A stretch of DNA of 64,000 nucleotides from Spironucleus salmonicida (Eukaryota). The stretch covers positions 496,001-560,000 of the forward strand of contig NC_090600.1 in the NCBI RefSeq assembly GCF_000497125.1, read 5' to 3'. Shown here piece by piece: positions 22,601 to 63,883 of the stretch. The notes beneath the pieces were generated by a model, which was given only the letters and a program-made list of their open reading frames with translations, had not been told where the DNA came from and did no database searches. A program made the position numbers and the translations under genes. Positions within the stretch are counted from its first letter, which is position 1. Every line of letters starts with the position of its first letter.

Positions 22601-22645
22601 ACGTACAGCTAAACGTTATTATCTTGTCAGAGTTAAGTCTTCCAT
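13637..22645 (-). CDS. Giant coiled-coil protein, ~3002 aa, containing 12 apparently identical 220-aa repeats
   Basis: Continuous TGA-free frame from ATG 22645 (MEDLTLTRQQRLAV...) through the repeat array to GAG-TGA at 13637; heptad-rich E/Q/K/L composition. Confidence 0.88.
13899..21883. repeat. Coding tandem repeat, 660-bp unit x ~12.1
   Basis: Sequence lines repeat every 11 lines (660 bp); ORF-track entries recur at +660; no unit differences seen by eye. Confidence 0.98.
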
Positions 22646-29100: not shown

Positions 29101-30128
29101 AGACCGAGTGCTGCACGAACAACTGCGGCGGATGCGAAATGGAGGCCCCCACAGCTTGCACCAAATGCAAAATCGACTCCGATTTCCCATTCCTCAAAAA
29201 CGCGAACTGCGTCGGCTGCACTGCCGCTATTCCAAACTGCCGCGCCTGCACCCAGGCCGACCAGTTCACGGACATCACCTGCGACGCCTGCACGGCGAGT
29301 TTCACCGGCGTGACCTGCGATACCGACTGCGGCGCCGGCATGAAGCAGTTCAACGGTACGTTCTGCCAGAGCGTTTCATGCGAGTTTTCCGTGCCGTGCG
29401 GCGGCAACGGGGCCTGCAAAACCACGTCTGGCAACAGCACCTGCGAGTGCAAGCCCGGATTTAGCGGCCGGAACTGCGAGAATCTGGAAACCTGCGAAGT
29501 CTAAAATTGCCAAACCTGCGTTTAGGGCGACGCCAAAAAGTGCAAAGTTTGCGCTCCAAACTACTAGCTCACCAGCTATAAACACTGCGAACTCAAGCAA
29601 AGCTGCGTAGTGGAGAACTGCCTCACCTGCGTCTGGAACAACCCAAACCGCTGCCAGGGGTGCGCCCAAGATTACGATTTGACGGCCGCTGGGTCCTGCG
29701 AAATAGCCTAAATATGCAAGGTCAAGGACTGCCAAACCTGCGTTATGGGGAATGAAAATTAGTGCGAAATCTGCTACAAAAGCTTGGATCCATTGACAAA
29801 TTGCACAGACTGCAAGTTTGGGCTTTTCTTGTCCTAGAATGTGTGCAAGTCATGCGGTGAAGGGTGCGGGCGCTGCACCAGCGCAAATAAGTGTATTTCC
29901 TGCGCGGACGGCTCGATTCCCGTTAAGGGAAAGTGTTCAGTGCAAACTGCACAGATTGGTGCGGGGGGAATCGCTGGAATCGTTATCGCGCTGATAGCGG
30001 TTTTGCTTGTTGTTATACTGACAGTAATTTTGGTAAAGAGACGCAAATCAAATGCAAAAAGGGCTTAATATGTTGATTAAGGCCTTCTAGACAGAGGTAA
30101 CGGTAGCTAGGTGGCTATTGTTGAGTGA
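26124..30128 (+). CDS. Cysteine-rich membrane protein (about 8 CXXC/EGF modules, C-terminal TM, KRRK tail), 1334 aa, copy 2
   Basis: Open frame with repeated C..C...IPNC..C.Q / FTG..C / C.G.G.C...C.C..G..G.NCE; TM IAGIVIALIAVLLVVILTVILV then KRRKSNAKRAQYVDQ...VAIVE and GAG-TGA. Confidence 0.93.
30124..30128 (+). promoter_or_regulatory. Putative polyadenylation signal AGTGA overlapping the stop codon (representative example)
   Basis: Same AG-TGA ending in the genes stopping at 8677, 9911, 13637, 33870, 57318, 59536 and 63883; resembles the described diplomonad AGTRAA/AGTGA signals. Confidence 0.7.
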
Positions 30129-34138: not shown

Positions 34139-37100
34139 ATGTCCCTCTTAAATTCTTTTAAGAACTAGCCATTTAACGAATAAAAAAGTTCATTTTATGA
34201 ACTTATGAAGCATTATTTAGATCGTGATTAGAAAAGAATTTATGAAATTGAACTTGTTAAGAAAACAGTTTCATTTTAAGAATAACAAATTACAGAATTA
34301 GAAAATTTATTATAATCTAAGAATGAAATTCTTACATTTTATCTTTAAAAACCTTAAAATGTGTAACCTATTGAGTTTGACTTTGATGAACTCAGATCAG
34401 AAATCCTATCTCTTTCACAAAGTGAAGTATCAAATGCTTCTGTTTAAAATATTTAATCTTTATTAGAATCATTTGATAATTAGTTTTATAATTCATAATA
34501 AGGCAAAAAGTAGTAAGATATGATTTTATAATTAGAAAATCGTAATAAAGATTTGGTATCATAAATTTTGCAAATGCAACAAGATAACTAATTAATTGCA
34601 TAGTAAGCTGACTTAGAATAATAAAAATTATTTCATAACTTATAATCTTAGGATTAATAAAGACAGAGTACCTAGGCTTTGCAAAAATTATTAGCAGAGT
34701 CAAATTCAGCAAGTAAAATTCTTAAGAATTTAATTGTAGATAAAGACTAAGAATTGAAACTGATAAGAAATGAATTATAAATATCTAAGTAAGCTCTTAC
34801 TTAAAGAAATAACGAAATAGACCAACTAGGTTAAAATGTTTCTAATTAAGATATCCTAAGATAAGAATTAGAAAAGTAAGTATCTAGTTTAAGATCATAA
34901 GGTCTATTAGAAAAGGAAACCTTACGTCATTAAGTAAAAGTGTTATAATAGAGAGTAATAGAATAAAATAATATTAAACCATAAGTGGTTAATCAATTTA
35001 TTTAAGCCTCTACAAGTAATAACGATAGTATAAATATCGAGTAGCTAAAATAAGAAAATTAATATCTAAATGAAGTTATAGGAACAATGGTTTAAGATAT
35101 TGAAGAAAAAAATAAAGTTAAGTAATTACCAGACCGTAGTTTATTAGCACTTCAAACATAGATATCGCAGTTACAGCAGGAGCTCGAGTCCAAACAGGCC
35201 GAGTCCCAGTAGAATACTACCGACTTAGAGGCTCTGAAAGCTTAGAACGAGTCCCTTGCCAAAGAGGTTTCGGACCTCTAGGCGTAGGCCGACGAGATCA
35301 AGGCCACGGCCGATGAAAATGTCGTGGCGCTCGCCGACGAGATCAAGCAACTGTAGGATGCCCACCAGGCTGAAGCTGATCGCCTGAACGAACAACTAGG
35401 CTAGCAAGCCGCATCCTCCGAAGAACTTAAGCAGGAGATCTAAGACCACAGGGCCGCCGAGGAAGAGCAGGACGCTTAAATTCAAGCACTCCACGAAGAG
35501 CGTTCAACGCTCCAGACCTAGCTCGAACTTGCTACGGCGGTTACTGAATCCCACGAGGTCACTTTCCAGACCGAAGTCGCCCAAGAATGCGCTGAGGTCC
35601 AATGTGGCGCAGAGCTGAACGACTTTGATACCCAGGCCACTGTCGACCTAGTGGTCGCTTCCACTCAACCGTCTTCCCGCGAGGATAGCGTGAATGAGGC
35701 CGCTCTCGCTCTTCAGGAGCAGAATGCCGAGCTTGTCGAGCAGATATCGCAGTTACAGCAGGAGCTCTAGTCCAAACAGGCCGAGTCCCAGTAGAATACT
35801 ACCGACTTAGAGGCTCTGAAAGCTTAGAACGAGTCCCTTGCCAAAGAGGTTTCGGACCTCTAGGCGTAGGCCGACGAGATCAAGGCCACGGCCGATGAAA
35901 ATGTCGTGGCGCTCGCCGACGAGATCAAGCAACTGTAGGATGCCCACCAGGCTGAAGCTGATCGCCTGAACGAACAACTAGGCTAGCAAGCCGCATCCTC
36001 CGAAGAACTTAAGCAGGAGATCTAAGACCACAGGGCCGCCGAGGAAGAGCAGGACGCTTAAATTCAAGCACTCCACGAAGAGCGTTCAACGCTCCAGACC
36101 TAGCTCGAACTTGCTACGGCGGTTACTGAATCCCACGAGGTCACTTTCCAGACCGAAGTCGCCCAAGAATGCGCTGAGGTCCAATGTGGCGCAGAGCTGA
36201 ACGACTTTGATACCCAGGCCACTGTCGACCTAGTGGTCGCTTCCACTCAACCGTCTTCCCGCGAGGATAGCGTGAATGAGGCCGCTCTCGCTCTTCAGGA
36301 GCAGAATGCCGAGCTTGTCGAGCAGATATCGCAGTTACAGCAGGAGCTCGAGTCCAAACAGGCCGAGTCCCAGTAGAATACTACCGACTTAGAGGCTCTG
36401 AAAGCTTAGAACGAGTCCCTTGCCAAAGAGGTTTCGGACCTCTAGGCGTAGGCCGACGAGATCAAGGCCACGGCCGATGAAAATGTCGTGGCGCTCGCCG
36501 ACGAGATCAAGCAACTGTAGGATGCCCACCAGGCTGAAGCTGATCGCCTGAACGAACAACTAGGCTAGCAAGCCGCATCCTCCGAAGAACTTAAGCAGGA
36601 GATCTAAGACCACAGGGCCGCCGAGGAAGAGCAGGACGCTTAAATTCAAGCACTCCACGAAGAGCGTTCAACGCTCCAGACCTAGCTCGAACTTGCTACG
36701 GCGGTTACTGAATCCCACGAGGTCACTTTCCAGACCGAAGTCGCCCAAGAATGCGCTGAGGTCCAATGTGGCGCAGAGCTGAACGACTTTGATACCCAGG
36801 CCACTGTCGACCTAGTGGTCGCTTCCACTCAACCGTCTTCCCGCGAGGATAGCGTGAATGAGGCCGCTCTCGCTCTTCAGGAGCAGAATGCCGAGCTTGT
36901 CGAGCAGATATCGCAGTTACAGCAGGAGCTCTAGTCCAAACAGGCCGAGTCCCAGTAGAATACTACCGACTTAGAGGCTCTGAAAGCTTAGAACGAGTCC
37001 CTTGCCAAAGAGGTTTCGGACCTCTAGGCGTAGGCCGACGAGATCAAGGCCACGGCCGATGAAAATGTCGTGGCGCTCGCCGACGAGATCAAGCAACTGT

Positions 37101-40100
37101 AGGATGCCCACCAGGCTGAAGCTGATCGCCTGAACGAACAACTAGGCTAGCAAGCCGCATCCTCCGAAGAACTTAAGCAGGAGATCTAAGACCACAGGGC
37201 CGCCGAGGAAGAGCAGGACGCTTAAATTCAAGCACTCCACGAAGAGCGTTCAACGCTCCAGACCTAGCTCGAACTTGCTACGGCGGTTACTGAATCCCAC
37301 GAGGTCACTTTCCAGACCGAAGTCGCCCAAGAATGCGCTGAGGTCCAATGTGGCGCAGAGCTGAACGACTTTGATACCCAGGCCACTGTCGACCTAGTGG
37401 TCGCTTCCACTCAACCGTCTTCCCGCGAGGATAGCGTGAATGAGGCCGCTCTCGCTCTTCAGGAGCAGAATGCCGAGCTTGTCGAGCAGATATCGCAGTT
37501 ACAGCAGGAGCTCTAGTCCAAACAGGCCGAGTCCCAGTAGAATACTACCGACTTAGAGGCTCTGAAAGCTTAGAACGAGTCCCTTGCCAAAGAGGTTTCG
37601 GACCTCTAGGCGTAGGCCGACGAGATCAAGGCCACGGCCGATGAAAATGTCGTGGCGCTCGCCGACGAGATCAAGCAACTGTAGGATGCCCACCAGGCTG
37701 AAGCTGATCGCCTGAACGAACAACTAGGCTAGCAAGCCGCATCCTCCGAAGAACTTAAGCAGGAGATCTAAGACCACAGGGCCGCCGAGGAAGAGCAGGA
37801 CGCTTAAATTCAAGCACTCCACGAAGAGCGTTCAACGCTCCAGACCTAGCTCGAACTTGCTACGGCGGTTACTGAATCCCACGAGGTCACTTTCCAGACC
37901 GAAGTCGCCCAAGAATGCGCTGAGGTCCAATGTGGCGCAGAGCTGAACGACTTTGATACCCAGGCCACTGTCGACCTAGTGGTCGCTTCCACTCAACCGT
38001 CTTCCCGCGAGGATAGCGTGAATGAGGCCGCTCTCGCTCTTCAGGAGCAGAATGCCGAGCTTGTCGAGCAGATATCGCAGTTACAGCAGGAGCTCGAGTC
38101 CAAACAGGCCGAGTCCCAGTAGAATACTACCGACTTAGAGGCTCTGAAAGCTTAGAACGAGTCCCTTGCCAAAGAGGTTTCGGACCTCTAGGCGTAGGCC
38201 GACGAGATCAAGGCCACGGCCGATGAAAATGTCGTGGCGCTCGCCGACGAGATCAAGCAACTGTAGGATGCCCACCAGGCTGAAGCTGATCGCCTGAACG
38301 AACAACTAGGCTAGCAAGCCGCATCCTCCGAAGAACTTAAGCAGGAGATCTAAGACCACAGGGCCGCCGAGGAAGAGCAGGACGCTTAAATTCAAGCACT
38401 CCACGAAGAGCGTTCAACGCTCCAGACCTAGCTCGAACTTGCTACGGCGGTTACTGAATCCCACGAGGTCACTTTCCAGACCGAAGTCGCCCAAGAATGC
38501 GCTGAGGTCCAATGTGGCGCAGAGCTGAACGACTTTGATACCCAGGCCACTGTCGACCTAGTGGTCGCTTCCACTCAACCGTCTTCCCGCGAGGATAGCG
38601 TGAATGAGGCCGCTCTCGCTCTTCAGGAGCAGAATGCCGAGCTTGTCGAGCAGATATCGCAGTTACAGCAGGAGCTCGAGTCCAAACAGGCCGAGTCCCA
38701 GTAGAATACTACCGACTTAGAGGCTCTGAAAGCTTAGAACGAGTCCCTTGCCAAAGAGGTTTCGGACCTCTAGGCGTAGGCCGACGAGATCAAGGCCACG
38801 GCCGATGAAAATGTCGTGGCGCTCGCCGACGAGATCAAGCAACTGTAGGATGCCCACCAGGCTGAAGCTGATCGCCTGAACGAACAACTAGGCTAGCAAG
38901 CCGCATCCTCCGAAGAACTTAAGCAGGAGATCTAAGACCACAGGGCCGCCGAGGAAGAGCAGGACGCTTAAATTCAAGCACTCCACGAAGAGCGTTCAAC
39001 GCTCCAGACCTAGCTCGAACTTGCTACGGCGGTTACTGAATCCCACGAGGTCACTTTCCAGACCGAAGTCGCCCAAGAATGCGCTGAGGTCCAATGTGGC
39101 GCAGAGCTGAACGACTTTGATACCCAGGCCACTGTCGACCTAGTGGTCGCTTCCACTCAACCGTCTTCCCGCGAGGATAGCGTGAATGAGGCCGCTCTCG
39201 CTCTTCAGGAGCAGAATGCCGAGCTTGTCGAGCAGATATCGCAGTTACAGCAGGAGCTCGAGTCCAAACAGGCCGAGTCCCAGTAGAATACTACCGACTT
39301 AGAGGCTCTGAAAGCTTAGAACGAGTCCCTTGCCAAAGAGGTTTCGGACCTCTAGGCGTAGGCCGACGAGATCAAGGCCACGGCCGATGAAAATGTCGTG
39401 GCGCTCGCCGACGAGATCAAGCAACTGTAGGATGCCCACCAGGCTGAAGCTGATCGCCTGAACGAACAACTAGGCTAGCAAGCCGCATCCTCCGAAGAAC
39501 TTAAGCAGGAGATCTAAGACCACAGGGCCGCCGAGGAAGAGCAGGACGCTTAAATTCAAGCACTCCACGAAGAGCGTTCAACGCTCCAGACCTAGCTCGA
39601 ACTTGCTACGGCGGTTACTGAATCCCACGAGGTCACTTTCCAGACCGAAGTCGCCCAAGAATGCGCTGAGGTCCAATGTGGCGCAGAGCTGAACGACTTT
39701 GATACCCAGGCCACTGTCGACCTAGTGGTCGCTTCCACTCAACCGTCTTCCCGCGAGGATAGCGTGAATGAGGCCGCTCTCGCTCTTCAGGAGCAGAATG
39801 CCGAGCTTGTCGAGCAGATATCGCAGTTACAGCAGGAGCTCGAGTCCAAACAGGCCGAGTCCCAGTAGAATACTACCGACTTAGAGGCTCTGAAAGCTTA
39901 GAACGAGTCCCTTGCCAAAGAGGTTTCGGACCTCTAGGCGTAGGCCGACGAGATCAAGGCCACGGCCGATGAAAATGTCGTGGCGCTCGCCGACGAGATC
40001 AAGCAACTGTAGGATGCCCACCAGGCTGAAGCTGATCGCCTGAACGAACAACTAGGCTAGCAAGCCGCATCCTCCGAAGAACTTAAGCAGGAGATCTAAG

Positions 40101-43100
40101 ACCACAGGGCCGCCGAGGAAGAGCAGGACGCTTAAATTCAAGCACTCCACGAAGAGCGTTCAACGCTCCAGACCTAGCTCGAACTTGCTACGGCGGTTAC
40201 TGAATCCCACGAGGTCACTTTCCAGACCGAAGTCGCCCAAGAATGCGCTGAGGTCCAATGTGGCGCAGAGCTGAACGACTTTGATACCCAGGCCACTGTC
40301 GACCTAGTGGTCGCTTCCACTCAACCGTCTTCCCGCGAGGATAGCGTGAATGAGGCCGCTCTCGCTCTTCAGGAGCAGAATGCCGAGCTTGTCGAGCAGA
40401 TATCGCAGTTACAGCAGGAGCTCTAGTCCAAACAGGCCGAGTCCCAGTAGAATACTACCGACTTAGAGGCTCTGAAAGCTTAGAACGAGTCCCTTGCCAA
40501 AGAGGTTTCGGACCTCTAGGCGTAGGCCGACGAGATCAAGGCCACGGCCGATGAAAATGTCGTGGCGCTCGCCGACGAGATCAAGCAACTGTAGGATGCC
40601 CACCAGGCTGAAGCTGATCGCCTGAACGAACAACTAGGCTAGCAAGCCGCATCCTCCGAAGAACTTAAGCAGGAGATCTAAGACCACAGGGCCGCCGAGG
40701 AAGAGCAGGACGCTTAAATTCAAGCACTCCACGAAGAGCGTTCAACGCTCCAGACCTAGCTCGAACTTGCTACGGCGGTTACTGAATCCCACGAGGTCAC
40801 TTTCCAGACCGAAGTCGCCCAAGAATGCGCTGAGGTCCAATGTGGCGCAGAGCTGAACGACTTTGATACCCAGGCCACTGTCGACCTAGTGGTCGCTTCC
40901 ACTCAACCGTCTTCCCGCGAGGATAGCGTGAATGAGGCCGCTCTCGCTCTTCAGGAGCAGAATGCCGAGCTTGTCGAGCAGATATCGCAGTTACAGCAGG
41001 AGCTCGAGTCCAAACAGGCCGAGTCCCAGTAGAATACTACCGACTTAGAGGCTCTGAAAGCTTAGAACGAGTCCCTTGCCAAAGAGGTTTCGGACCTCTA
41101 GGCGTAGGCCGACGAGATCAAGGCCACGGCCGATGAAAATGTCGTGGCGCTCGCCGACGAGATCAAGCAACTGTAGGATGCCCACCAGGCTGAAGCTGAT
41201 CGCCTGAACGAACAACTAGGCTAGCAAGCCGCATCCTCCGAAGAACTTAAGCAGGAGATCTAAGACCACAGGGCCGCCGAGGAAGAGCAGGACGCTTAAA
41301 TTCAAGCACTCCACGAAGAGCGTTCAACGCTCCAGACCTAGCTCGAACTTGCTACGGCGGTTACTGAATCCCACGAGGTCACTTTCCAGACCGAAGTCGC
41401 CCAAGAATGCGCTGAGGTCCAATGTGGCGCAGAGCTGAACGACTTTGATACCCAGGCCACTGTCGACCTAGTGGTCGCTTCCACTCAACCGTCTTCCCGC
41501 GAGGATAGCGTGAATGAGGCCGCTCTCGCTCTTCAGGAGCAGAATGCCGAGCTTGTCGAGCAGATATCGCAGTTACAGCAGGAGCTCGAGTCCAAACAGG
41601 CCGAGTCCCAGTAGAATACTACCGACTTAGAGGCTCTGAAAGCTTAGAACGAGTCCCTTGCCAAAGAGGTTTCGGACCTCTAGGCGTAGGCCGACGAGAT
41701 CAAGGCCACGGCCGATGAAAATGTCGTGGCGCTCGCCGACGAGATCAAGCAACTGTAGGATGCCCACCAGGCTGAAGCTGATCGCCTGAACGAACAACTA
41801 GGCTAGCAAGCCGCATCCTCCGAAGAACTTAAGCAGGAGATCTAAGACCACAGGGCCGCCGAGGAAGAGCAGGACGCTTAAATTCAAGCACTCCACGAAG
41901 AGCGTTCAACGCTCCAGACCTAGCTCGAACTTGCTACGGCGGTTACTGAATCCCACGAGGTCACTTTCCAGACCGAAGTCGCCCAAGAATGCGCTGAGGT
42001 CCAATGTGGCGCAGAGCTGAACGACTTTGATACCCAGGCCACTGTCGACCTAGTGGTCGCTTCCACTCAACCGTCTTCCCGCGAGGATAGCGTGAATGAG
42101 GCCGCTCTCGCTCTTCAGGAGCAGAATGCCGAGCTTGTCGAGCAGATATCGCAGTTACAGCAGGAGCTCGAGTCCAAACAGGCCGAGTCCCAGTAGAATA
42201 CTACCGACTTAGAGGCTCTGAAAGCTTAGAACGAGTCCCTTGCCAAAGAGGTTTCGGACCTCTAGGCGTAGGCCGACGAGATCAAGGCCACGGCCGATGA
42301 AAATGTCGTGGCGCTCGCCGACGAGATCAAGCAACTGTAGGATGCCCACCAGGCTGAAGCTGATCGCCTGAACGAACAACTAGGCTAGCAAGCCGCATCC
42401 TCCGAAGAACTTAAGCAGGAGATCTAAGACCACAGGGCCGCCGAGGAAGAGCAGGACGCTTAAATTCAAGCACTCCACGAAGAGCGTTCAACGCTCCAGA
42501 CCTAGCTCGAACTTGCTACGGCGGTTACTGAATCCCACGAGGTCACTTTCCAGACCGAAGTCGCCCAAGAATGCGCTGAGGTCCAATGTGGCGCAGAGCT
42601 GAACGACTTTGATACCCAGGCCACTGTCGACCTAGTGGTCGCTTCCACTCAACCGTCTTCCCGCGAGGATAGCGTGAATGAGGCCGCTCTCGCTCTTCAG
42701 GAGCAGAATGCCGAGCTTGTCGAGCAGATATCGCAGTTACAGCAGGAGCTCGAGTCCAAACAGGCCGAGTCCCAGTAGAATACTACCGACTTAGAGGCTC
42801 TGAAAGCTTAGAACGAGTCCCTTGCCAAAGAGGTTTCGGACCTCTAGGCGTAGGCCGACGAGATCAAGGCCACGGCCGATGAAAATGTCGTGGCGCTCGC
42901 CGACGAGATCAAGCAACTGTAGGATGCCCACCAGGCTGAAGCTGATCGCCTGAACGAACAACTAGGCTAGCAAGCCGCATCCTCCGAAGAACTTAAGCAG
43001 GAGATCTAAGACCACAGGGCCGCCGAGGAAGAGCAGGACGCTTAAATTCAAGCACTCCACGAAGAGCGTTCAACGCTCCAGACCTAGCTCGAACTTGCTA

Positions 43101-46100
43101 CGGCGGTTACTGAATCCCACGAGGTCACTTTCCAGACCGAAGTCGCCCAAGAATGCGCTGAGGTCCAATGTGGCGCAGAGCTGAACGACTTTGATACCCA
43201 GGCCACTGTCGACCTAGTGGTCGCTTCCACTCAACCGTCTTCCCGCGAGGATAGCGTGAATGAGGCCGCTCTCGCTCTTCAGGAGCAGAATGCCGAGCTT
43301 GTCGAGCAGATATCGCAGTTACAGCAGGAGCTCGAGTCCAAACAGGCCGAGTCCCAGCAGCCAATCGCCACCCTCGAGCCCGCCGCAGACACACCCGTAA
43401 TGGTCGCACAGACCAGTTAGACTGAAGTCGCCCTCGACTAGCTTGAGGCTCTCTAGGCCCAGGCCGAAGAACAGCGCGCGGCGTACGAACAATAGCTAAC
43501 TGCCCTCAACGAGGAACTAGAGGAGTTGAAGCTGAGCGAATCAGACTTGATCGCAGAAAACGACGAACTTCAAGGCAAGGTCGACGAGCTTGAGGAAGTT
43601 CTCGAATACGTCAACCAGCAGAGCACTTCTAAGCGCGACTCTATCGGCCTCCTCGGCAGGGAGCTCGATGACTTTAAGGACGCCTTCAAGCAGCTTTCTA
43701 CCTCCAACGAGGAAACCCTGCGCGAGGTAGCCGCATTGCGTGCCGATAAGCAACTACTCCAGAGCGAGGTTGAAGAGCTTCGCAACCAAATGCAGAACCT
43801 CGCCGAGCAGCTAGAAGATACCCAGCGCGAGAACACCGCCGCCCAGGACGCAACTACCGACCTCTAAGAACGTCTTGCACGCGAAACCGAGTCTCTCACC
43901 CGCACCGTGGCCGAAAAGGAGCAGGCTGTCTACCAGTTACAGCAGGAGCTCGAGTCCAAACAGGCCGAGTCCCAGCAGCCAATCGCCACCCTCGAGCCCG
44001 CCGCAGGCACACCCGTAATGGTCGCACAGACCAGTTAGACTGAAGTCGCCCTCGACTAGCTTGAGGCTCTCTAGGCCCAGGCCGAAGAACAGCGCGCGGC
44101 GTACGAACAATAGCTAACTGCCCTCAACGAGGAACTAGAGGAGTTGAAGCTGAGCGAATCAGACTTGATCGCAGAAAACGACGAACTTCAAGGCAAGGTC
44201 GACGAGCTTGAGGAAGTTCTCGAATACGTCAACCAGCAGAGCACTTCTAAGCGCGACTCTATCGGCCTCCTCGGCAGGGAGCTCGATGACTTTAAGGACG
44301 CCTTCAAGCAGCTTTCTACCTCCAACGAGGAAACCCTGCGCGAGGTAGCCGCATTGCGTGCCGATAAGCAACTACTCCAGAGCGAGGTTGAAGAGCTTCG
44401 CAACCAAATGCAGAACCTCGCCGAGCAGCTAGAAGATACCCAGCGCGAGAACACCGCCGCCCAGGACGCAACTACCGACCTCTAAGAACGTCTTGCACGC
44501 GAAACCGAGTCTCTCACCCGCACCGTGGCCGAAAAGGAGCAGGCTGTCTACCAGTTACAGCAGGAGCTCGAGTCCAAACAGGCCGAGTCCCAGCAGCCAA
44601 TCGCCACCCTCGAGCCCGCCGCAGACACACCCGTAATGGTCGCACAGACCAGTTAGACTGAAGTCGCCCTCGACTAGCTTGAGGCTCTCTAGGCCCAGGC
44701 CGAAGAACAGCGCGCGGCGTACGAACAATAGCTAACTGCCCTCAACGAGGAACTAGAGGAGTTGAAGCTGAGCGAATCAGACTTGATCGCAGAAAACGAC
44801 GAACTTCAAGGCAAGGTCGACGAGCTTGAGGAAGTTCTCGAATACGTCAACCAGCAGAGCACTTCTAAGCGCGACTCTATCGGCCTCCTCGACAGGGAGC
44901 TCGATGACTTTAAGGACGCCTTCAAGCAGCTTTCTACCTCCAACGAGGAAACCCTGCGCGAGGTAGCCGCATTGCGTGCCGATAAGCAACTACTCCAGAG
45001 CGAGGTTGAAGAGCTTCGCAACCAAATGCAGAACCTCGCCGAGCAGCTAGAAGATACCCAGCGCGAGAACACCGCCGCCCAGGACGCAACTACCGACCTC
45101 TAAGAACGTCTTGCACGCGAAACCGAGTCTCTCACCCGCACCGTGGCCGAAAAGGAGCAGGCTGTCTACCAGTTACAGCAGGAGCTCGAGTCCAAACAGG
45201 CCGAGTCCCAGCAGCCAATCGCCACCCTCGAGCCCGCCGCAGACACACCCGTAATGGTCGCACAGACCAGTTAGACTGAAGTCGCCCTCGACTAGCTTGA
45301 GGCTCTCTAGGCCCAGGCCGAAGAACAGCGCGCGGCGTACGAACAATAGCTAACTGCCCTCAACGAGGAACTAGAGGAGTTGAAGCTGAGCGAATCAGAC
45401 TTGATCGCAGAAAACGACGAACTTCAAGGCAAGGTCGACGAGCTTGAGGAAGTTCTCGAATACGTCAACCAGCAGAGCACTTCTAAGCGCGACTCTATCG
45501 GCCTCCTCGACAGGGAGCTCGATGACTTTAAGGACGCCTTCAAGCAGCTTTCTACCTCCAACGAGGAAACCCTGCGCGAGGTAGCCGCATTGCGTGCCGA
45601 TAAGCAACTACTCCAGAGCGAGGTTGAAGAGCTTCGCAACCAAATGCAGAACCTCGCCGAGCAGCTAGAAGATACCCAGCGCGAGAACACCGCCGCCCAG
45701 GACGCAACTACCGACCTCTAAGAACGTCTTGCACGCGAAACCGAGTCTCTCACCCGCACCGTGGCCGAAAAGGAGCAGGCTGTCTACCAGTTACAGCAGG
45801 AGCTCGAGTCCAAACAGGCCGAGTCCCAGCAGCCAATCGCCACCCTCGAGCCCGCCGCAGGCACACCCGTAATGGTCGCACAGACCAGTTAGACTGAAGT
45901 CGCCCTCGACTAGCTTGAGGCTCTCTAGGCCCAGGCCGAAGAACAGCGCGCGGCGTACGAACAATAGCTAACTGCCCTCAACGAGGAACTAGAGGAGTTG
46001 AAGCTGAGCGAATCAGACTTGATCGCAGAAAACGACGAACTTCAAGGCAAGGTCGACGAGCTTGAGGAAGTTCTCGAATACGTCAACCAGCAGAGCACTT

Positions 46101-49100
46101 CTAAGCGCGACTCTATCGGCCTCCTCGACAGGGAGCTCGATGACTTTAAGGACGCCTTCAAGCAGCTTTCTACCTCCAACGAGGAAACCCTGCGCGAGGT
46201 AGCCGCATTGCGTGCCGATAAGCAACTACTCCAGAGCGAGGTTGAAGAGCTTCGCAACCAAATGCAGAACCTCGCCGAGCAGCTAGAAGATACCCAGCGC
46301 GAGAACACCGCCGCCCAGGACGCAACTACCGACCTCTAAGAACGTCTTGCACGCGAAACCGAGTCTCTCACCCGCACCGTGGCCGAAAAGGAGCAGGCTG
46401 TCTACCAGTTACAGCAGGAGCTCGAGTCCAAACAGGCCGAGTCCCAGCAGCCAATCGCCACCCTCGAGCCCGCCGCAGACACACCCGTAATGGTCGCACA
46501 GACCAGTTAGACTGAAGTCGCCCTCGACTAGCTTGAGGCTCTCTAGGCCCAGGCCGAAGAACAGCGCGCGGCGTACGAACAATAGCTAACTGCCCTCAAC
46601 GAGGAACTAGAGGAGTTGAAGCTGAGCGAATCAGACTTGATCGCAGAAAACGACGAACTTCAAGGCAAGGTCGACGAGCTTGAGGAAGTTCTCGAATACG
46701 TCAACCAGCAGAGCACTTCTAAGCGCGACTCTATCGGCCTCCTCGACAGGGAGCTCGATGACTTTAAGGACGCCTTCAAGCAGCTTTCTACCTCCAACGA
46801 GGAAACCCTGCGCGAGGTAGCCGCATTGCGTGCCGATAAGCAACTACTCCAGAGCGAGGTTGAAGAGCTTCGCAACCAAATGCAGAACCTCGCCGAGCAG
46901 CTAGAAGATACCCAGCGCGAGAACACCGCCGCCCAGGACGCAACTACCGACCTCTAAGAACGTCTTGCACGCGAAACCGAGTCTCTCACCCGCACCGTGG
47001 CCGAAAAGGAGCAGGCTGTCTACCAGTTACAGCAGGAGCTCGAGTCCAAACAGGCCGAGTCCCAGCAGCCAATCGCCACCCTCGAGCCCGCCGCAGACAC
47101 ACCCGTAATGGTCGCACAGACCAGTTAGACTGAAGTCGCCCTCGACTAGCTTGAGGCTCTCTAGGCCCAGGCCGAAGAACAGCGCGCGGCGTACGAACAA
47201 TAGCTAACTGCCCTCAACGAGGAACTAGAGGAGTTGAAGCTGAGCGAATCAGACTTGATCGCAGAAAACGACGAACTTCAAGGCAAGGTCGACGAGCTTG
47301 AGGAAGTTCTCGAATACGTCAACCAGCAGAGCACTTCTAAGCGCGACTCTATCGGCCTCCTCGACAGGGAGCTCGATGACTTTAAGGACGCCTTCAAGCA
47401 GCTTTCTACCTCCAACGAGGAAACCCTGCGCGAGGTAGCCGCATTGCGTGCCGATAAGCAACTACTCCAGAGCGAGGTTGAAGAGCTTCGCAACCAAATG
47501 CAGAACCTCGCCGAGCAGCTAGAAGATACCCAGCGCGAGAACACCGCCGCCCAGGACGCAACTACCGACCTCTAAGAACGTCTTGCACGCGAAACCGAGT
47601 CTCTCACCCGCACCGTGGCCGAAAAGGAGCAGGCTGTCTACCAGTTACAGCAGGAGCTCGAGTCCAAACAGGCCGAGTCCCAGCAGCCAATCGCCACCCT
47701 CGAGCCCGCCGCAGGCACACCCGTAATGGTCGCACAGACCAGTTAGACTGAAGTCGCCCTCGACTAGCTTGAGGCTCTCTAGGCCCAGGCCGAAGAACAG
47801 CGCGCGGCGTACGAACAATAGCTAACTGCCCTCAACGAGGAACTAGAGGAGTTGAAGCTGAGCGAATCAGACTTGATCGCAGAAAACGACGAACTTCAAG
47901 GCAAGGTCGACGAGCTTGAGGAAGTTCTCGAATACGTCAACCAGCAGAGCACTTCTAAGCGCGACTCTATCGGCCTCCTCGGCAGGGAGCTCGATGACTT
48001 TAAGGACGCCTTCAAGCAGCTTTCTACCTCCAACGAGGAAACCCTGCGCGAGGTAGCCGCATTGCGTGCCGATAAGCAACTACTCCAGAGCGAGGTTGAA
48101 GAGCTTCGCAACCAAATGCAGAACCTCGCCGAGCAGCTAGAAGATACCCAGCGCGAGAACACCGCCGCCCAGGACGCAACTACCGACCTCTAAGAACGTC
48201 TTGCACGCGAAACCGAGTCTCTCACCCGCACCGTGGCCGAAAAGGAGCAGGCTGTCTACCAGTTACAGCAGGAGCTCGAGTCCAAACAGGCCGAGTCCCA
48301 GCAGCCAATCGCCACCCTCGAGCCCGCCGCAGGCACACCCGTAATGGTCGCACAGACCAGTTAGACTGAAGTCGCCCTCGACTAGCTTGAGGCTCTCTAG
48401 GCCCAGGCCGAAGAACAGCGCGCGGCGTACGAACAATAGCTAACTGCCCTCAACGAGGAACTAGAGGAGTTGAAGCTGAGCGAATCAGACTTGATCGCAG
48501 AAAACGACGAACTTCAAGGCAAGGTCGACGAGCTTGAGGAAGTTCTCGAATACGTCAACCAGCAGAGCACTTCTAAGCGCGACTCTATCGGCCTCCTCGG
48601 CAGGGAGCTCGATGACTTTAAGGACGCCTTCAAGCAGCTTTCTACCTCCAACGAGGAAACCCTGCGCGAGGTAGCCGCATTGCGTGCCGATAAGCAACTA
48701 CTCCAGAGCGAGGTTGAAGAGCTTCGCAACCAAATGCAGAACCTCGCCGAGCAGCTAGAAGATACCCAGCGCGAGAACACCGCCGCCCAGGACGCAACTA
48801 CCGACCTCTAAGAACGTCTTGCACGCGAAACCGAGTCTCTCACCCGCACCGTGGCCGAAAAGGAGCAGGCTGTCTACCAGTTACAGCAGGAGCTCGAGTC
48901 CAAACAGGCCGAGTCCCAGCAGCCAATCGCCACCCTCGAGCCCGCCGCAGGCACACCCGTAATGGTCGCACAGACCAGTTAGACTGAAGTCGCCCTCGAC
49001 TAGCTTGAGGCTCTCTAGGCCCAGGCCGAAGAACAGCGCGCGGCGTACGAACAATAGCTAACTGCCCTCAACGAGGAACTAGAGGAGTTGAAGCTGAGCG

Positions 49101-52100
49101 AATCAGACTTGATCGCAGAAAACGACGAACTTCAAGGCAAGGTCGACGAGCTTGAGGAAGTTCTCGAATACGTCAACCAGCAGAGCACTTCTAAGCGCGA
49201 CTCTATCGGCCTCCTCGACAGGGAGCTCGATGACTTTAAGGACGCCTTCAAGCAGCTTTCTACCTCCAACGAGGAAACCCTGCGCGAGGTAGCCGCATTG
49301 CGTGCCGATAAGCAACTACTCCAGAGCGAGGTTGAAGAGCTTCGCAACCAAATGCAGAACCTCGCCGAGCAGCTAGAAGATACCCAGCGCGAGAACACCG
49401 CCGCCCAGGACGCAACTACCGACCTCTAAGAACGTCTTGCACGCGAAACCGAGTCTCTCACCCGCACCGTGGCCGAAAAGGAGCAGGCTGTCTACCAGTT
49501 ACAGCAGGAGCTCGAGTCCAAACAGGCCGAGTCCCAGCAGCCAATCGCCACCCTCGAGCCCGCCGCAGACACACCCGTAATGGTCGCACAGACCAGTTAG
49601 ACTGAAGTCGCCCTCGACTAGCTTGAGGCTCTCTAGGCCCAGGCCGAAGAACAGCGCGCGGCGTACGAACAATAGCTAACTGCCCTCAACGAGGAACTAG
49701 AGGAGTTGAAGCTGAGCGAATCAGACTTGATCGCAGAAAACGACGAACTTCAAGGCAAGGTCGACGAGCTTGAGGAAGTTCTCGAATACGTCAACCAGCA
49801 GAGCACTTCTAAGCGCGACTCTATCGGCCTCCTCGACAGGGAGCTCGATGACTTTAAGGACGCCTTCAAGCAGCTTTCTACCTCCAACGAGGAAACCCTG
49901 CGCGAGGTAGCCGCATTGCGTGCCGATAAGCAACTACTCCAGAGCGAGGTTGAAGAGCTTCGCAACCAAATGCAGAACCTCGCCGAGCAGCTAGAAGATA
50001 CCCAGCGCGAGAACACCGCCGCCCAGGACGCAACTACCGACCTCTAAGAACGTCTTGCACGCGAAACCGAGTCTCTCACCCGCACCGTGGCCGAAAAGGA
50101 GCAGGCTGTCTACCAGTTACAGCAGGAGCTCGAGTCCAAACAGGCCGAGTCCCAGCAGCCAATCGCCACCCTCGAGCCCGCCGCAGGCACACCCGTAATG
50201 GTCGCACAGACCAGTTAGACTGAAGTCGCCCTCGACTAGCTTGAGGCTCTCTAGGCCCAGGCCGAAGAACAGCGCGCGGCGTACGAACAATAGCTAACTG
50301 CCCTCAACGAGGAACTAGAGGAGTTGAAGCTGAGCGAATCAGACTTGATCGCAGAAAACGACGAACTTCAAGGCAAGGTCGACGAGCTTGAGGAAGTTCT
50401 CGAATACGTCAACCAGCAGAGCACTTCTAAGCGCGACTCTATCGGCCTCCTCGCAGGGAGCTCGATGACTTTAAGGACGCCTTCAAGCAGCTTTCTACCT
50501 CCAACGAGGAAACCCTGCGCGAGGTAGCCGCATTGCGTGCCGATAAGCAACTACTCCAGAGCGAGGTTGAAGAGCTTCGCAACCAAATGCAGAACCTCGC
50601 CGAGCAGCTAGAAGATACCCAGCGCGAGAACACCGCCGCCCAGGACGCAACTACCGACCTCTAAGAACGTCTTGCACGCGAAACCGAGTCTCTCACCCGC
50701 ACCGTGGCCGAAAAGGAGCAGGCTGTCTACCAGTTACAGCAGGAGCTCGAGTCCAAACAGGCCGAGTCCCAGCAGCCAATCGCCACCCTCGAGCCCGCCG
50801 CAGACACACCCGTAATGGTCGCACAGACCAGTTAGACTGAAGTCGCCCTCGACTAGCTTGAGGCTCTCTAGGCCCAGGCCGAAGAACAGCGCGCGGCGTA
50901 CGAACAATAGCTAACTGCCCTCAACGAGGAACTAGAGGAGTTGAAGCTGAGCGAATCAGACTTGATCGCAGAAAACGACGAACTTCAAGGCAAGGTCGAC
51001 GAGCTTGAGGAAGTTCTCGAATACGTCAACCAGCAGAGCACTTCTAAGCGCGACTCTATCGGCCTCCTCGGCAGGGAGCTCGATGACTTTAAGGACGCCT
51101 TCAAGCAGCTTTCTACCTCCAACGAGGAAACCCTGCGCGAGGTAGCCGCATTGCGTGCCGATAAGCAACTACTCCAGAGCGAGGTTGAAGAGCTTCGCAA
51201 CCAAATGCAGAACCTCGCCGAGCAGCTAGAAGATACCCAGCGCGAGAACACCGCCGCCCAGGACGCAACTACCGACCTCTAAGAACGTCTTGCACGCGAA
51301 ACCGAGTCTCTCACCCGCACCGTGGCCGAAAAGGAGCAGGCTGTCTACCAGTTACAGCAGGAGCTCGAGTCCAAACAGGCCGAGTCCCAGCAGCCAATCG
51401 CCACCCTCGAGCCCGCCGCAGGCACACCCGTAATGGTCGCACAGACCAGTTAGACTGAAGTCGCCCTCGACTAGCTTGAGGCTCTCTAGGCCCAGGCCGA
51501 AGAACAGCGCGCGGCGTACGAACAATAGCTAACTGCCCTCAACGAGGAACTAGAGGAGTTGAAGCTGAGCGAATCAGACTTGATCGCAGAAAACGACGAA
51601 CTTCAAGGCAAGGTCGACGAGCTTGAGGAAGTTCTCGAATACGTCAACCAGCAGAGCACTTCTAAGCGCGACTCTATCGGCCTCCTCGGCAGGGAGCTCG
51701 ATGACTTTAAGGACGCCTTCAAGCAGCTTTCTACCTCCAACGAGGAAACCCTGCGCGAGGTAGCCGCATTGCGTGCCGATAAGCAACTACTCCAGAGCGA
51801 GGTTGAAGAGCTTCGCAACCAAATGCAGAACCTCGCCGAGCAGCTAGAAGATACCCAGCGCGAGAACACCGCCGCCCAGGACGCAACTACCGACCTCTAA
51901 GAACGTCTTGCACGCGAAACCGAGTCTCTCACCCGCACCGTGGCCGAAAAGGAGCAGGCTGTCTACCAGTTACAGCAGGAGCTCGAGTCCAAACAGGCCG
52001 AGTCCCAGCAGCCAATCGCCACCCTCGAGCCCGCCGCAGACACACCCGTAATGGTCGCACAGACCAGTTAGACTGAAGTCGCCCTCGACTAGCTTGAGGC

Positions 52101-55100
52101 TCTCTAGGCCCAGGCCGAAGAACAGCGCGCGGCGTACGAACAATAGCTAACTGCCCTCAACGAGGAACTAGAGGAGTTGAAGCTGAGCGAATCAGACTTG
52201 ATCGCAGAAAACGACGAACTTCAAGGCAAGGTCGACGAGCTTGAGGAAGTTCTCGAATACGTCAACCAGCAGAGCACTTCTAAGCGCGACTCTATCGGCC
52301 TCCTCGGCAGGGAGCTCGATGACTTTAAGGACGCCTTCAAGCAGCTTTCTACCTCCAACGAGGAAACCCTGCGCGAGGTAGCCGCATTGCGTGCCGATAA
52401 GCAACTACTCCAGAGCGAGGTTGAAGAGCTTCGCAACCAAATGCAGAACCTCGCCGAGCAGCTAGAAGATACCCAGCGCGAGAACACCGCCGCCCAGGAC
52501 GCAACTACCGACCTCTAAGAACGTCTTGCACGCGAAACCGAGTCTCTCACCCGCACCGTGGCCGAAAAGGAGCAGGCTGTCTACCAGTTACAGCAGGAGC
52601 TCGAGTCCAAACAGGCCGAGTCCCAGCAGCCAATCGCCACCCTCGAGCCCGCCGCAGACACACCCGTAATGGTCGCACAGACCAGTTAGACTGAAGTCGC
52701 CCTCGACTAGCTTGAGGCTCTCTAGGCCCAGGCCGAAGAACAGCGCGCGGCGTACGAACAATAGCTAACTGCCCTCAACGAGGAACTAGAGGAGTTGAAG
52801 CTGAGCGAATCAGACTTGATCGCAGAAAACGACGAACTTCAAGGCAAGGTCGACGAGCTTGAGGAAGTTCTCGAATACGTCAACCAGCAGAGCACTTCTA
52901 AGCGCGACTCTATCGGCCTCCTCGACAGGGAGCTCGATGACTTTAAGGACGCCTTCAAGCAGCTTTCTACCTCCAACGAGGAAACCCTGCGCGAGGTAGC
53001 CGCATTGCGTGCCGATAAGCAACTACTCCAGAGCGAGGTTGAAGAGCTTCGCAACCAAATGCAGAACCTCGCCGAGCAGCTAGAAGATACCCAGCGCGAG
53101 AACACCGCCGCCCAGGACGCAACTACCGACCTCTAAGAACGTCTTGCACGCGAAACCGAGTCTCTCACCCGCACCGTGGCCGAAAAGGAGCAGGCTGTCT
53201 ACCAGTTACAGCAGGAGCTCGAGTCCAAACAGGCCGAGTCCCAGCAGCCAATCGCCACCCTCGAGCCCGCCGCAGACACACCCGTAATGGTCGCACAGAC
53301 CAGTTAGACTGAAGTCGCCCTCGACTAGCTTGAGGCTCTCTAGGCCCAGGCCGAAGAACAGCGCGCGGCGTACGAACAATAGCTAACTGCCCTCAACGAG
53401 GAACTAGAGGAGTTGAAGCTGAGCGAATCAGACTTGATCGCAGAAAACGACGAACTTCAAGGCAAGGTCGACGAGCTTGAGGAAGTTCTCGAATACGTCA
53501 ACCAGCAGAGCACTTCTAAGCGCGACTCTATCGGCCTCCTCGACAGGGAGCTCGATGACTTTAAGGACGCCTTCAAGCAGCTTTCTACCTCCAACGAGGA
53601 AACCCTGCGCGAGGTAGCCGCATTGCGTGCCGATAAGCAACTACTCCAGAGCGAGGTTGAAGAGCTTCGCAACCAAATGCAGAACCTCGCCGAGCAGCTA
53701 GAAGATACCCAGCGCGAGAACACCGCCGCCCAGGACGCAACTACCGACCTCTAAGAACGTCTTGCACGCGAAACCGAGTCTCTCACCCGCACCGTGGCCG
53801 AAAAGGAGCAGGCTGTCTACCAGTTACAGCAGGAGCTCGAGTCCAAACAGGCCGAGTCCCAGCAGCCAATCGCCACCCTCGAGCCCGCCGCAGGCACACC
53901 CGTAATGGTCGCACAGACCAGTTAGACTGAAGTCGCCCTCGACTAGCTTGAGGCTCTCTAGGCCCAGGCCGAAGAACAGCGCGCGGCGTACGAACAATAG
54001 CTAACTGCCCTCAACGAGGAACTAGAGGAGTTGAAGCTGAGCGAATCAGACTTGATCGCAGAAAACGACGAACTTCAAGGCAAGGTCGACGAGCTTGAGG
54101 AAGTTCTCGAATACGTCAACCAGCAGAGCACTTCTAAGCGCGACTCTATCGGCCTCCTCGACAGGGAGCTCGATGACTTTAAGGACGCCTTCAAGCAGCT
54201 TTCTACCTCCAACGAGGAAACCCTGCGCGAGGTAGCCGCATTGCGTGCCGATAAGCAACTACTCCAGAGCGAGGTTGAAGAGCTTCGCAACCAAATGCAG
54301 AACCTCGCCGAGCAGCTAGAAGATACCCAGCGCGAGAACACCGCCGCCCAGGACGCAACTACCGACCTCTAAGAACGTCTTGCACGCGAAACCGAGTCTC
54401 TCACCCGCACCGTGGCCGAAAAGGAGCAGGCTGTCTACCAGTTACAGCAGGAGCTCGAGTCCAAACAGGCCGAGTCCCAGCAGCCAATCGCCACCCTCGA
54501 GCCCGCCGCAGACACACCCGTAATGGTCGCACAGACCAGTTAGACTGAAGTCGCCCTCGACTAGCTTGAGGCTCTCTAGGCCCAGGCCGAAGAACAGCGC
54601 GCGGCGTACGAACAATAGCTAACTGCCCTCAACGAGGAACTAGAGGAGTTGAAGCTGAGCGAATCAGACTTGATCGCAGAAAACGACGAACTTCAAGGCA
54701 AGGTCGACGAGCTTGAGGAAGTTCTCGAATACGTCAACCAGCAGAGCACTTCTAAGCGCGACTCTATCGGCCTCCTCGGCAGGGAGCTCGATGACTTTAA
54801 GGACGCCTTCAAGCAGCTTTCTACCTCCAACGAGGAAACCCTGCGCGAGGTAGCCGCATTGCGTGCCGATAAGCAACTACTCCAGAGCGAGGTTGAAGAG
54901 CTTCGCAACCAAATGCAGAACCTCGCCGAGCAGCTAGAAGATACCCAGCGCGAGAACACCGCCGCCCAGGACGCAACTACCGACCTCTAAGAACGTCTTG
55001 CACGCGAAACCGAGTCTCTCACCCGCACCGTGGCCGAAAAGGAGCAGGCTGTCTACCAGTTACAGCAGGAGCTCGAGTCCAAACAGGCCGAGTCCCAGCA

Positions 55101-57318
55101 GCCAATCGCCACCCTCGAGCCCGCCGCAGGCACACCCGTAATGGTCGCACAGACCAGTTAGACTGAAGTCGCCCTCGACTAGCTTGAGGCTCTCTAGGCC
55201 CAGGCCGAAGAACAGCGCGCGGCGTACGAACAATAGCTAACTGCCCTCAACGAGGAACTAGAGGAGTTGAAGCTGAGCGAATCAGACTTGATCGCAGAAA
55301 ACGACGAACTTCAAGGCAAGGTCGACGAGCTTGAGGAAGTTCTCGAATACGTCAACCAGCAGAGCACTTCTAAGCGCGACTCTATCGGCCTCCTCGACAG
55401 GGAGCTCGATGACTTTAAGGACGCCTTCAAGCAGCTTTCTACCTCCAACGAGGAAACCCTGCGCGAGGTAGCCGCATTGCGTGCCGATAAGCAACTACTC
55501 CAGAGCGAGGTTGAAGAGCTTCGCAACCAAATGCAGAACCTCGCCGAGCAGCTAGAAGATACCCAGCGCGAGAACACCGCCGCCCAGGACGCAACTACCG
55601 ACCTCTAAGAACGTCTTGCACGCGAAACCGAGTCTCTCACCCGCACCGTGGCCGAAAAGGAGCAGGCTGTCTACCAGTTACAGCAGGAGCTCGAGTCCAA
55701 ACAGGCCGAGTCCCAGCAGCCAATCGCCACCCTCGAGCCCGCCGCAGACACACCCGTAATGGTCGCACAGACCAGTTAGACTGAAGTCGCCCTCGACTAG
55801 CTTGAGGCTCTCTAGGCCCAGGCCGAAGAACAGCGCGCGGCGTACGAACAATAGCTAACTGCCCTCAACGAGGAACTAGAGGAGTTGAAGCTGAGCGAAT
55901 CAGACTTGATCGCAGAAAACGACGAACTTCAAGGCAAGGTCGACGAGCTTGAGGAAGTTCTCGAATACGTCAACCAGCAGAGCACTTCTAAGCGCGACTC
56001 TATCGGCCTCCTCGGCAGGGAGCTCGATGACTTTAAGGACGCCTTCAAGCAGCTTTCTACCTCCAACGAGGAAACCCTGCGCGAGGTAGCCGCATTGCGT
56101 GCCGATAAGCAACTACTCCAGAGCGAGGTTGAAGAGCTTCGCAACCAAATGCAGAACCTCGCCGAGCAGCTAGAAGATACCCAGCGCGAGAACACCGCCG
56201 CCCAGGACGCAACTACCGACCTCTAAGAACGTCTTGCACGCGAAACCGAGTCTCTCACCCGCACCGTGGCCGAAAAGGAGCAGGCTGTCTACCAGTTACA
56301 GCAGGAGCTCGAGTCCAAACAGGCCGAGTCCCAGCAGCCAATCGCCACCCTCGAGCCCGCCGCAGACACACCCGTAATGGTCGCACAGACCAGTTAGACT
56401 GAAGTCGCCCTCGACTAGCTTGAGGCTCTCTAGGCCCAGGCCGAAGAACAGCGCGCGGCGTACGAACAATAGCTAACTGCCCTCAACGAGGAACTAGAGG
56501 AGTTGAAGCTGAGCGAATCAGACTTGATCGCAGAAAACGACGAACTTCAAGGCAAGGTCGACGAGCTTGAGGAAGTTCTCGAATACGTCAACCAGCAGAG
56601 CACTTCTAAGCGCGACTCTATCGGCCTCCTCGGCAGGGAGCTCGATGACTTTAAGGACGCCTTCAAGCAGCTTTCTACCTCCAACGAGGAAACCCTGCGC
56701 GAGGTAGCCGCATTGCGTGCCGATAAGCAACTACTCCAGAGCGAGGTTGAAGAGCTTCGCAACCAAATGCAGAACCTCGCCGAGCAGCTAGAAGATACCC
56801 AGCGCGAGAACACCGCCGCCCAGGACGCAACTACCGACCTCTAAGAACGTCTTGCACGCGAAACCGAGTCTCTCACCCGCACCGTGGCCGAAAAGGAGCA
56901 GGCTGTCTACCAGTTACAGCAGGACCTTAAGGAAACCTTATCTTAGCTTACATAATTGAAAATTACATCTCTATAATAAAATGAAATCTAAATATAAGAA
57001 AGACAGAAACTTCTATTATAAAACTCATTGTATAGCTCTGAGTCTACATATGTTGAAGAAGGTTAATAGGAATTCAGTTGCGAATAATAAACGCAAAAGC
57101 AAAGTTAGATATTACTAGAAAGCTAGTAATCAGAAATGTAGATTACGCAATCTATTCATAAATAGATTTCATTGAAATAACTTGATCAAAATGATGAAGA
57201 TGATATAAAATCATGTTATCTTATTGTTCTATCTGAATTATATAAAGCATAGGATGATATACTAAAGATGAAGTATAAACAATTAATTTAAGAAGAGGAT
57301 TTGAAATATAATAAGTGA
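34139..57318 (+). CDS. Giant repetitive coiled-coil protein, ~7726 aa if the 1-nt gap at ~50453 is an error
   Basis: Open from ATG 34139 (MSLLNSFKNQ...) through the 582-bp and 618-bp arrays to AAG-TGA at 57316-57318; one frameshift in unit 12 of the 618-bp array. Confidence 0.82.
35160..43357. repeat. Coding tandem repeat A, 582-bp unit (194 aa) x14
   Basis: GATATCGCAGTTACAG recurs at 35161, 35743 ... 38071, 40981 and 43309 (period 582). Confidence 0.97.
43316..56924. repeat. Coding tandem repeat B, 618-bp unit (206 aa) x22
   Basis: Track ORF MKLSESD... recurs 22 times at +618, once at +617. Confidence 0.97.
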
Positions 57319-57931
57319 TTTATTATTATTTTCGCTTTAAATTAGATTCGAATAGAGTGGCACCTATCAACTAAAATATTTGTGCTAAGTAATTGTTTAA
57401 TCTGTTCTTAAATATTATTTATAAAAAGCAAAGTAATATTGTGATTAATTATTATATTTTATTTGCTCGTTATATAAAATTAATGCTTAATAAGTAGGTT
57501 AGATATATTATAATGTATATTAATAGTAGATATTATGTTAAAAGATCATATAAAACCTGAATCAATTCAATTTTACATTTTAGTATTTATTATTCCACTT
57601 CATTAGAAGACAAATCAAGTTAAAGTGGTAATAGTGGTGAAACTCTTAGAACCTATGTGGATTAATTACCTATGAAATTATTTTATCATTTTTATTCATC
57701 ATGAAAATAATAATTGGAGCATAACAATAAATGTGATGGTGGATATTTTACAAATGATTATTTCATGATGATTTTTATTTTTAATACCAATTTTCAAGAA
57801 AATCTCTTAAAACCCTTTCATCTATTATTCAAATGTTCTAAACTATCTTATAGTTTCTCGCCATGAAATCTAAATATAATTATATTATTATATACTATAA
57901 ATCAGTAAATTACTCCGCTTAATATCTATAA

Positions 57932-63700: not shown

Positions 63701-63883
63701 TACAGGCTCGAAACGATGCGCCACGACCACAAAGTACTGGCCAGGCAGTTCGACGCTGTGAGCCAGCAGCTCGCCGCCGAAAGGGAGGCGCAGAAGCGGA
63801 TGGAGGCCGCGAACGAGGTGCTCCGGATCGAGGTGCTGAACTTAAGCTGCGGCCGCAAAACGCTTGAAAATGAGGCTGAGTGA
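60794..63883 (+). CDS. Long coiled-coil protein, 1029 aa
   Basis: TGA-free frame from ATG 60794 (MPPSQKTL...) to GAG-TGA at 63883; Q/E/K/N-rich heptads. Confidence 0.85.

Follow-up and report, generated by a model that had tools for sequence, protein, structure and literature searches.

Ladders of LC8-binding sites are known in animals and in yeast, where they occur as single blocks, and Swallow, Ana2 and myosin Va carry one or two LC8 sites that adjoin a coiled coil. According to the available parts of the relevant reports, the linkers between the sites have 3-4 residues in KANK1 and 4-5 residues in Nup159 (PMC12803091), and the QT2-3 pair of ASCIZ has a 3-residue linker, binds cooperatively and possibly brings adjacent LC8 dimers into contact (PMC10046861). 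The linker L2 of KANK1 is a single long, disordered ladder of about 15 non-canonical sites next to a coiled coil. The individual sites are weak and fail as single peptides, about 15 LC8 dimers are bound cooperatively in measured binding, and the proposed product is a rigid rod of stacked LC8 dimers with a modelled length of about 53 nm for 15 dimers (PMC12803091, in the accessible sections). The dynein-light-chain-interacting region of Nup159 is likewise a structural stacked rod, built on five strong, easily predicted QT motifs that lie close together in one block (PMC12803091, PMC10046861, accessible sections). ASCIZ/ATMIN, a transcription factor whose sites are not flanked by coiled-coil repeats, is of high valency, with mostly canonical TQT motifs, uneven linkers and heterogeneous complexes (PMC10046861, accessible sections). 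According to the available portion of the LC8Pred paper (PMC6607443), binding to LC8 is less favourable when a motif departs from the anchor, when position -4 is taken by a large hydrophobic residue, when prolines lie inside the motif and when it has several charges of the same sign.

The locus described here belongs to Spironucleus salmonicida, and its sequence appears to resemble an LC8 ladder in geometry and context, not in anchors. The window is the whole stretch of 64,000 nucleotides that was analysed (C5:496001-560000), and the genome searched was the 14.5-Mb assembly of 42 contigs. Code 6, in which TAA and TAG encode Gln, was used for the window because it gives long ORFs of 3002, 5601 and 2243 codons; table 11 gives short frames only in the giant-gene region, and that reading was dropped. 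The ORF of 5601 codons is open under code 6 only and forms the first part of a giant coiled-coil gene (Table 1), which would have about 7,700 codons if the break in its frame is an assembly error. A search for diplomonad LC8 clients or periodic LC8 ladders in giant coiled coils, which took in few of the subscription papers, returned none, and a term search of the available text of PMC9509377 found neither 'coiled' nor 'dynein'.

Table 1. Features of the giant gene, in positions of the window.
Feature	Position	Strand	Remarks
Giant coiled-coil gene (code 6)	34139..57318	+	ORF 34139-50944 + ORF 50392-57318
Unique N-terminal region, ~340 aa	34139..35159	+	AT-rich, GC3 0.17; single copy in genome
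Array A, 14 units x 582 bp (194 aa)	35160..43357	+	end approximate
Four-motif cassette, first copy	35549..35677	+	later copies at 35549 + 582k, last 43115
Motif 1, HEVTFQTE	35552..35575	+	anchor FQT; 6/8 positions as in measured binders; bulky F at -1
Motif 2, ECAEVQCG	35585..35608	+	anchor VQC; 8/8; small Ala at -3
Motif 3, NDFDTQAT	35618..35641	+	anchor TQA; 7/8; favourable D at -4; Ala at +1 absent from binder table
Motif 4, VVASTQPS	35651..35674	+	anchor TQP; 7/8, including Pro at +1; Val at -4, internal Pro
Array B, 22 units x 618 bp (206 aa)	43358..56924	+	borders approximate
Array-B motif VAQTSQTE, first copy	43403..43426	+	anchor SQT; 8/8 positions seen in binders
Sole 617-bp unit of array B	50192..50808	+	frame break near 50454
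Unique C-terminal region, ~130 aa	56925..57318	+

Each unit of array A comprises a heptad helix of about 140 aa and a cassette/linker of about 50 aa, and each unit of array B comprises a helix of about 186 aa and a Pro-containing linker of 20 aa. Both units contain a block of about 42 bp, which points to a shared origin or to recombination at this place. The 13 complete units of array A differ at a single variable site, which lies outside the cassette, and the units of array B have two variable sites, besides the one unit that is one base short. GC3 changes sharply within the gene, from 0.17 in the unique N-terminus to 0.65-0.69 across the repeat units. Word depth in the DNA run X1, which may be the assembly's own source, is 153.4 on the 582-bp unit against 14.5 on the unique 5' part; because of this ratio of about 11, array A is real and no invention of the assembly. 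No run in which the sequence occurs is recorded as RNA. Among the eight runs listed, four were examined, and in the three guessed to be RNA the 582-bp unit is covered and the unique 5' part is without coverage, a pattern compatible with low expression and with DNA carry-over alike. A second giant coiled-coil gene of 3002 aa is found at 13637-22645 (-) of the window, with near-identical 660-bp units (12 anchor copies) that are likewise GC-rich.

The cassette SHEVTFQTEVAQECAEVQCGAELNDFDTQATVDLVVASTQPSS lies in frame within the first ORF and recurs in 14 copies at an exact period of 582 bp. All 14 copies are identical, and the genome-wide search returned no occurrence outside them. The earlier note on this DNA had reported four glutamines at exact 11-residue spacing in each 582-bp unit, and this is borne out, as they stand at offsets 6, 17, 28 and 39; an additional glutamine is found at offset 11. 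The step of 11 corresponds to an 8-residue motif and a 3-residue linker, three such linkers per cassette, and linkers so uniform and short fall within the range of LC8 ladders (3-5 residues). None of the four anchors is of the canonical [TVIS]-Q-T form, and FQT, VQC, TQA and TQP do not occur among the 62 tabulated measured binders. The anchor of motif 2 is that of the gephyrin site EDKGVQCE. Compared by hand with the rules in the available portion of PMC6607443, motif 1 fits at -4, -3 and +2 but its Phe at -1 is oversized, motif 3 conforms at -4 and -3, the -3 residue of motifs 2 and 4 is small, and motif 4 breaks two rules with its Val at -4 and Pro at +1. In the binder table, Pro at +1 comes only from the weak PAK1 site. 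Lys and Arg are absent from all four motifs, the 50-residue segment has a net charge of -9, and the fraction of beta-formers (Val, Thr, Ile, Phe, Cys) is 0.36 in the cassette and 0.10 elsewhere in the unit. The cassette is not classed as a member of the LC8 clients, because its anchors depart from the canonical form and its binding is predicted only.

Homologues of the repeats were sought among proteins of up to 2000 aa, by searches that are weak for long coiled coils. Unit A had no homologue at E 0.01 among proteins of 341-2000 aa, and the last B unit with the C-terminus had none among proteins of 553-2000 aa. The N-terminal 344 aa, compared with 1.84 billion representatives, gave a single chance coiled-coil match (E 1.7e-4). 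No PDB entry matched the cassette region at E 10, and Pfam returned only generic coiled-coil matches below the cut-off for the giant gene and no family for its unique N-terminus. The units are nearly identical, and their amplification is therefore recent. A count of about 56 LC8-type sites with exceptional valency had been proposed from the sequence. The number itself is right (4 x 14 = 56). However, since four sites have been copied 14 times, the copies are identical and a homologue was not found, these 56 sites provide no evidence of conservation. Rather, the sites are to be weighed as four distinct ones, multiplied by recent duplication, and the exceptional valency loses its basis, for it rests on identical copies and not on independent sites. 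Of the description as LC8-type motifs, the context and geometry of a multivalent client can be kept, and the canonical motifs cannot.

The regularity of the motifs was compared with chance. Four equally spaced glutamines appeared in 207 of 100,000 shuffles of the 50-residue cassette. A motif score was made from per-position letter sets of the 62 measured binders (cassette values in Table 1), and runs of four equally spaced motifs were counted at ≥6/8, a threshold picked after the motifs had been seen; of 20,000 shuffled versions of the unit, 126 contained such a run. None of 72 background ORFs (34,756 aa) contained one and five reached three, in a small background that comprises five window sequences and frames from loci retrieved by the searches of this analysis. 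The letter-set score is lenient, with 255 of 3192 (8.0%) background Q-centred 8-mers at 7/8; in the unit, four of the 31 Q-centred 8-mers attain at least 7/8, three of them within the cassette. Shuffle values of 16 and 0 of 100,000 were discounted because the letter sets had been fitted to the motifs. The periodic motif run is a non-random feature beyond chance expectation.

Nup159 and ASCIZ had been named as the models for this array. Close spacing is indeed shared with Nup159 and with one site pair of ASCIZ; a closer model is KANK1, whose many weak non-canonical sites are nearer to the cassette. As far as the accessible text of PMC12803091 describes it, KANK1 L2 resembles the cassette in its many non-canonical sites, its linkers of 3-4 residues and its adjacent coiled coil. 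The ladder of KANK1 is a single one, whereas in the giant gene four-site ladders alternate with helices of about 140 residues 14 times, and binding, measured there, is predicted here; a sequence relationship between the two was not found. Nup159 agrees with the present proposal in its close motifs and stacked rod, and differs in that the cassette motifs are non-canonical and repeated along the chain (PMC12803091, PMC10046861, accessible sections). ASCIZ/ATMIN shares with the cassette its high valency and one site pair with a 3-residue linker, and differs in its motifs, linkers and domain context as given above (PMC10046861, accessible sections).

Units of both arrays were modelled by single-sequence AlphaFold2. 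The models consist of long helices with low-confidence interruptions, about 60 residues long in unit A (first copy) and about 20 in unit B. The first modelled cassette is non-helical with pLDDT mostly <50, which accords with motifs placed in disorder as in multivalent LC8 clients; in the second cassette modelled, the flanking helix runs on, at low confidence, through motif 1. Hydrophobic residues in the helices on either side of the cassette have a period of 3.52, as in heptad coiled coils, at 14.7x the mean, and the best period within the cassette is 3.16 at 4.0x the mean. A hendecad (11-residue) helix as the source of the spacing is not favoured, for the cassette is modelled as mostly non-helical and is without a strong hydrophobic period. 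Complex prediction with four LC8 and two cassette chains, run with no control folds, scored 0.38, 0.00 and 0.17, the mark being 0.34, and is given no weight in either direction.

These features are compatible with a KANK1-like cooperative ladder of weak putative LC8 sites within a giant parallel coiled coil, a reading to which we give an even chance. The heptad helices of about 140 residues on either side would keep two parallel chains in register, and two cassettes, side by side, would be clamped cooperatively as beta strands by two to four LC8 dimers. The dimers would stack with 3-residue linkers in the KANK1 manner, and each cassette, otherwise a flexible hinge, would become a short rod; scaled from KANK1 (~53 nm for 15 dimers), the rod would measure at most about 14 nm. 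By rough geometry, a rod of ~14 nm and a helix of ~21 nm would give a period of ~35 nm, and both arrays together would extend over ~1.2 micrometres. It is unlikely that every site is occupied; along such a dimer of ~1.2 micrometres, up to 78 LC8 dimers would take fixed places with a period of ~35 nm, coiled-coil segments alternating with LC8 rods, and its valency would be ~5x that reported for KANK1. In that case the product would be a modular filament with its length set by gene-repeat number and its stiffness by LC8 supply. If dimerisation and binding are as predicted, some cytoskeletal role, such as the ruler or tether suggested earlier, might be assigned to the protein. A protein in which a short ladder recurs between coiled-coil segments would represent a new type of architecture, and the cooperative weak-site principle would reach a distant eukaryotic lineage. 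The 194-residue unit, with four weak sites and its own flanking helices, is a convenient natural test object. If LC8 binding fails, the giant gene would be another orphan repetitive coiled-coil gene of a diplomonad.

The array-B motif differs from the cassette in its anchor. The sequence PVMVAQTSQTEV is present in 22/22 of the 618-bp units, as had been noted earlier, and its anchor SQT is canonical and found in 4 of the 62 measured binders. VAQTSQTE straddles the border of linker and helix, with the anchor as the first helical turn in the single-sequence model. S-x-x-E is a classic N-cap where it opens a helix, and the motif may double as one. In the mechanism proposed, this one better-looking site at each helix start would hold the next coiled-coil segment together. 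Single similar motifs in neighbouring coiled-coil genes were also located as claimed, with SAFVQTEV at 22420-22397 (-), before the first helix of the neighbouring giant gene, and EAQIQTEQ at 63527-63550 (+). VAQTSQTE and SAFVQTEV stand directly before a helix, as in Swallow, Ana2 and myosin Va, but in array B this arrangement is repeated 22 times.

Alternatively, the cassette may be a flexible acidic hinge in which the glutamine pattern is a coincidence in a Gln/Thr-rich protein or a leftover of a small internal duplication, tandemly amplified 14 times, the array-B motif being a capping box. This main rival we consider rather doubtful. It would account for the non-canonical form of all four cassette anchors and for the near-identity of the units. 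Motifs 1 and 3 agree at 19 of 33 bases, against 9-13 for every other pair, which hints at a duplication that could create periodicity without selection, and internal duplication may have produced part of the glutamine periodicity. Likewise, the 660-bp unit of the neighbouring giant gene has no strict LC8-type motif, which implies that such arrays exist without LC8 sites, and the array-B model starts its helix at S-x-x-E. Nevertheless, the four 11-residue segments share just 1-2 of 11 residues in any pair, yet all of them keep a Q after a beta-branched or aromatic residue at the spacing suited to stacked LC8 dimers, and the shuffle and background tests speak against coincidence.

The ladder of putative LC8 sites also presupposes LC8, and its genes are present. 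The genome has eight PF01221 matches, equal to seven distinct proteins. Two of the matches (L001 and L002) are an identical, canonical LC8 of 89 residues that matches DYNLL2 over 1-89 (E 2.9e-46), with the groove residues E35, K36, F62, G63, S64, Y65, T67, H68, F73, Y75, Y77 and L84 in place. A paralogue, L004:1498-1764 (-) (G000:C4 near 1517903), has FTTNISHE instead of the canonical FGSYITHE; its groove strand is changed and its specificity may differ. The cassette could be a beta-strand ladder for some other partner, such as a diverged LC8 paralogue, a Tctex-type light chain or a neighbouring chain in lateral bundling, possibly via the two cysteines of motif 2. The seven distinct proteins and the altered strand of L004 lend themselves to this explanation, and a changed groove could account for the consistent departure of the anchors. 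We regard it as quite improbable, for LC8 seems to follow its ordinary rules in this organism, where the array-B motif and the paired motifs of three small paralogues (L057-L059) look canonical.

Lastly, it is very improbable that repeat expansion has left the giant gene without function or with hardly any expression, and that a frameshift has broken it. The 617-bp unit does shift the frame near 50454 and homologues were not found in the searches run, but the frame is open over 5601 codons, of which ~340 are unique and AT-rich, and then over >2200 to a unique C-terminus, and the helices have a clean heptad periodicity. The loss of one base where the copies of a long repeat vary is typical of assembly errors. 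The one-base break near 50454 coincides with a site that is variable among the array-B units and is probably such an error.

Further ladders were sought in the genome with DNA patterns and reversed-pattern controls. The patterns gave one triple match (L009) and three paralogous paired matches (L057-L059); the other matches were apparently satellites or noise, with counts not above those of the reversed-pattern controls, and 37 control matches of one ladder pattern were an unrelated 33-bp repeat. The three small paralogues (G000:C6:663000, 683294 and 702232, -) have a short coiled-coil-like stretch and then two QTD motifs, TAGVQTD and ALAAQTD, 12 residues apart, and by their motifs they appear to be better LC8-client candidates than the cassette. 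L009 (G000:C6:1240749-1240820, -) has IQT and TQT motifs 11 residues apart near the N-terminus of a protein that, we presume, resembles a cyclin. At L010 (G000:C3:1670497-1671756), a tandem repeat of 33 bp is open in one frame and encodes 11-residue units such as DPPTSGKMNLA.

Pfam, applied to 13 window proteins, identified a V-ATPase AC39 subunit, a CDP-alcohol phosphatidyltransferase and membrane proteins of the cysteine-rich EGF type among the neighbours of the giant gene, a setting that fits a hexamitid diplomonad. Two of the cysteine-rich EGF-type genes form an inverted pair at 1-3862 (-) and 26124-30128 (+), with 97.9% identity over 3862 bases. Two further orphan coiled-coil-like genes lie immediately 3' of the giant gene, at 57833-59509 and 60794-63883 (+), and the former contains IDVQCAE at 58613, which is similar to motif 2 of the cassette. 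Satellite-like repeats of 38 bp and 34 bp occur at G000:C4:844875-850934, C26, C8:201792-202834 and C22, each of the two repeats being found on one large and one small contig.
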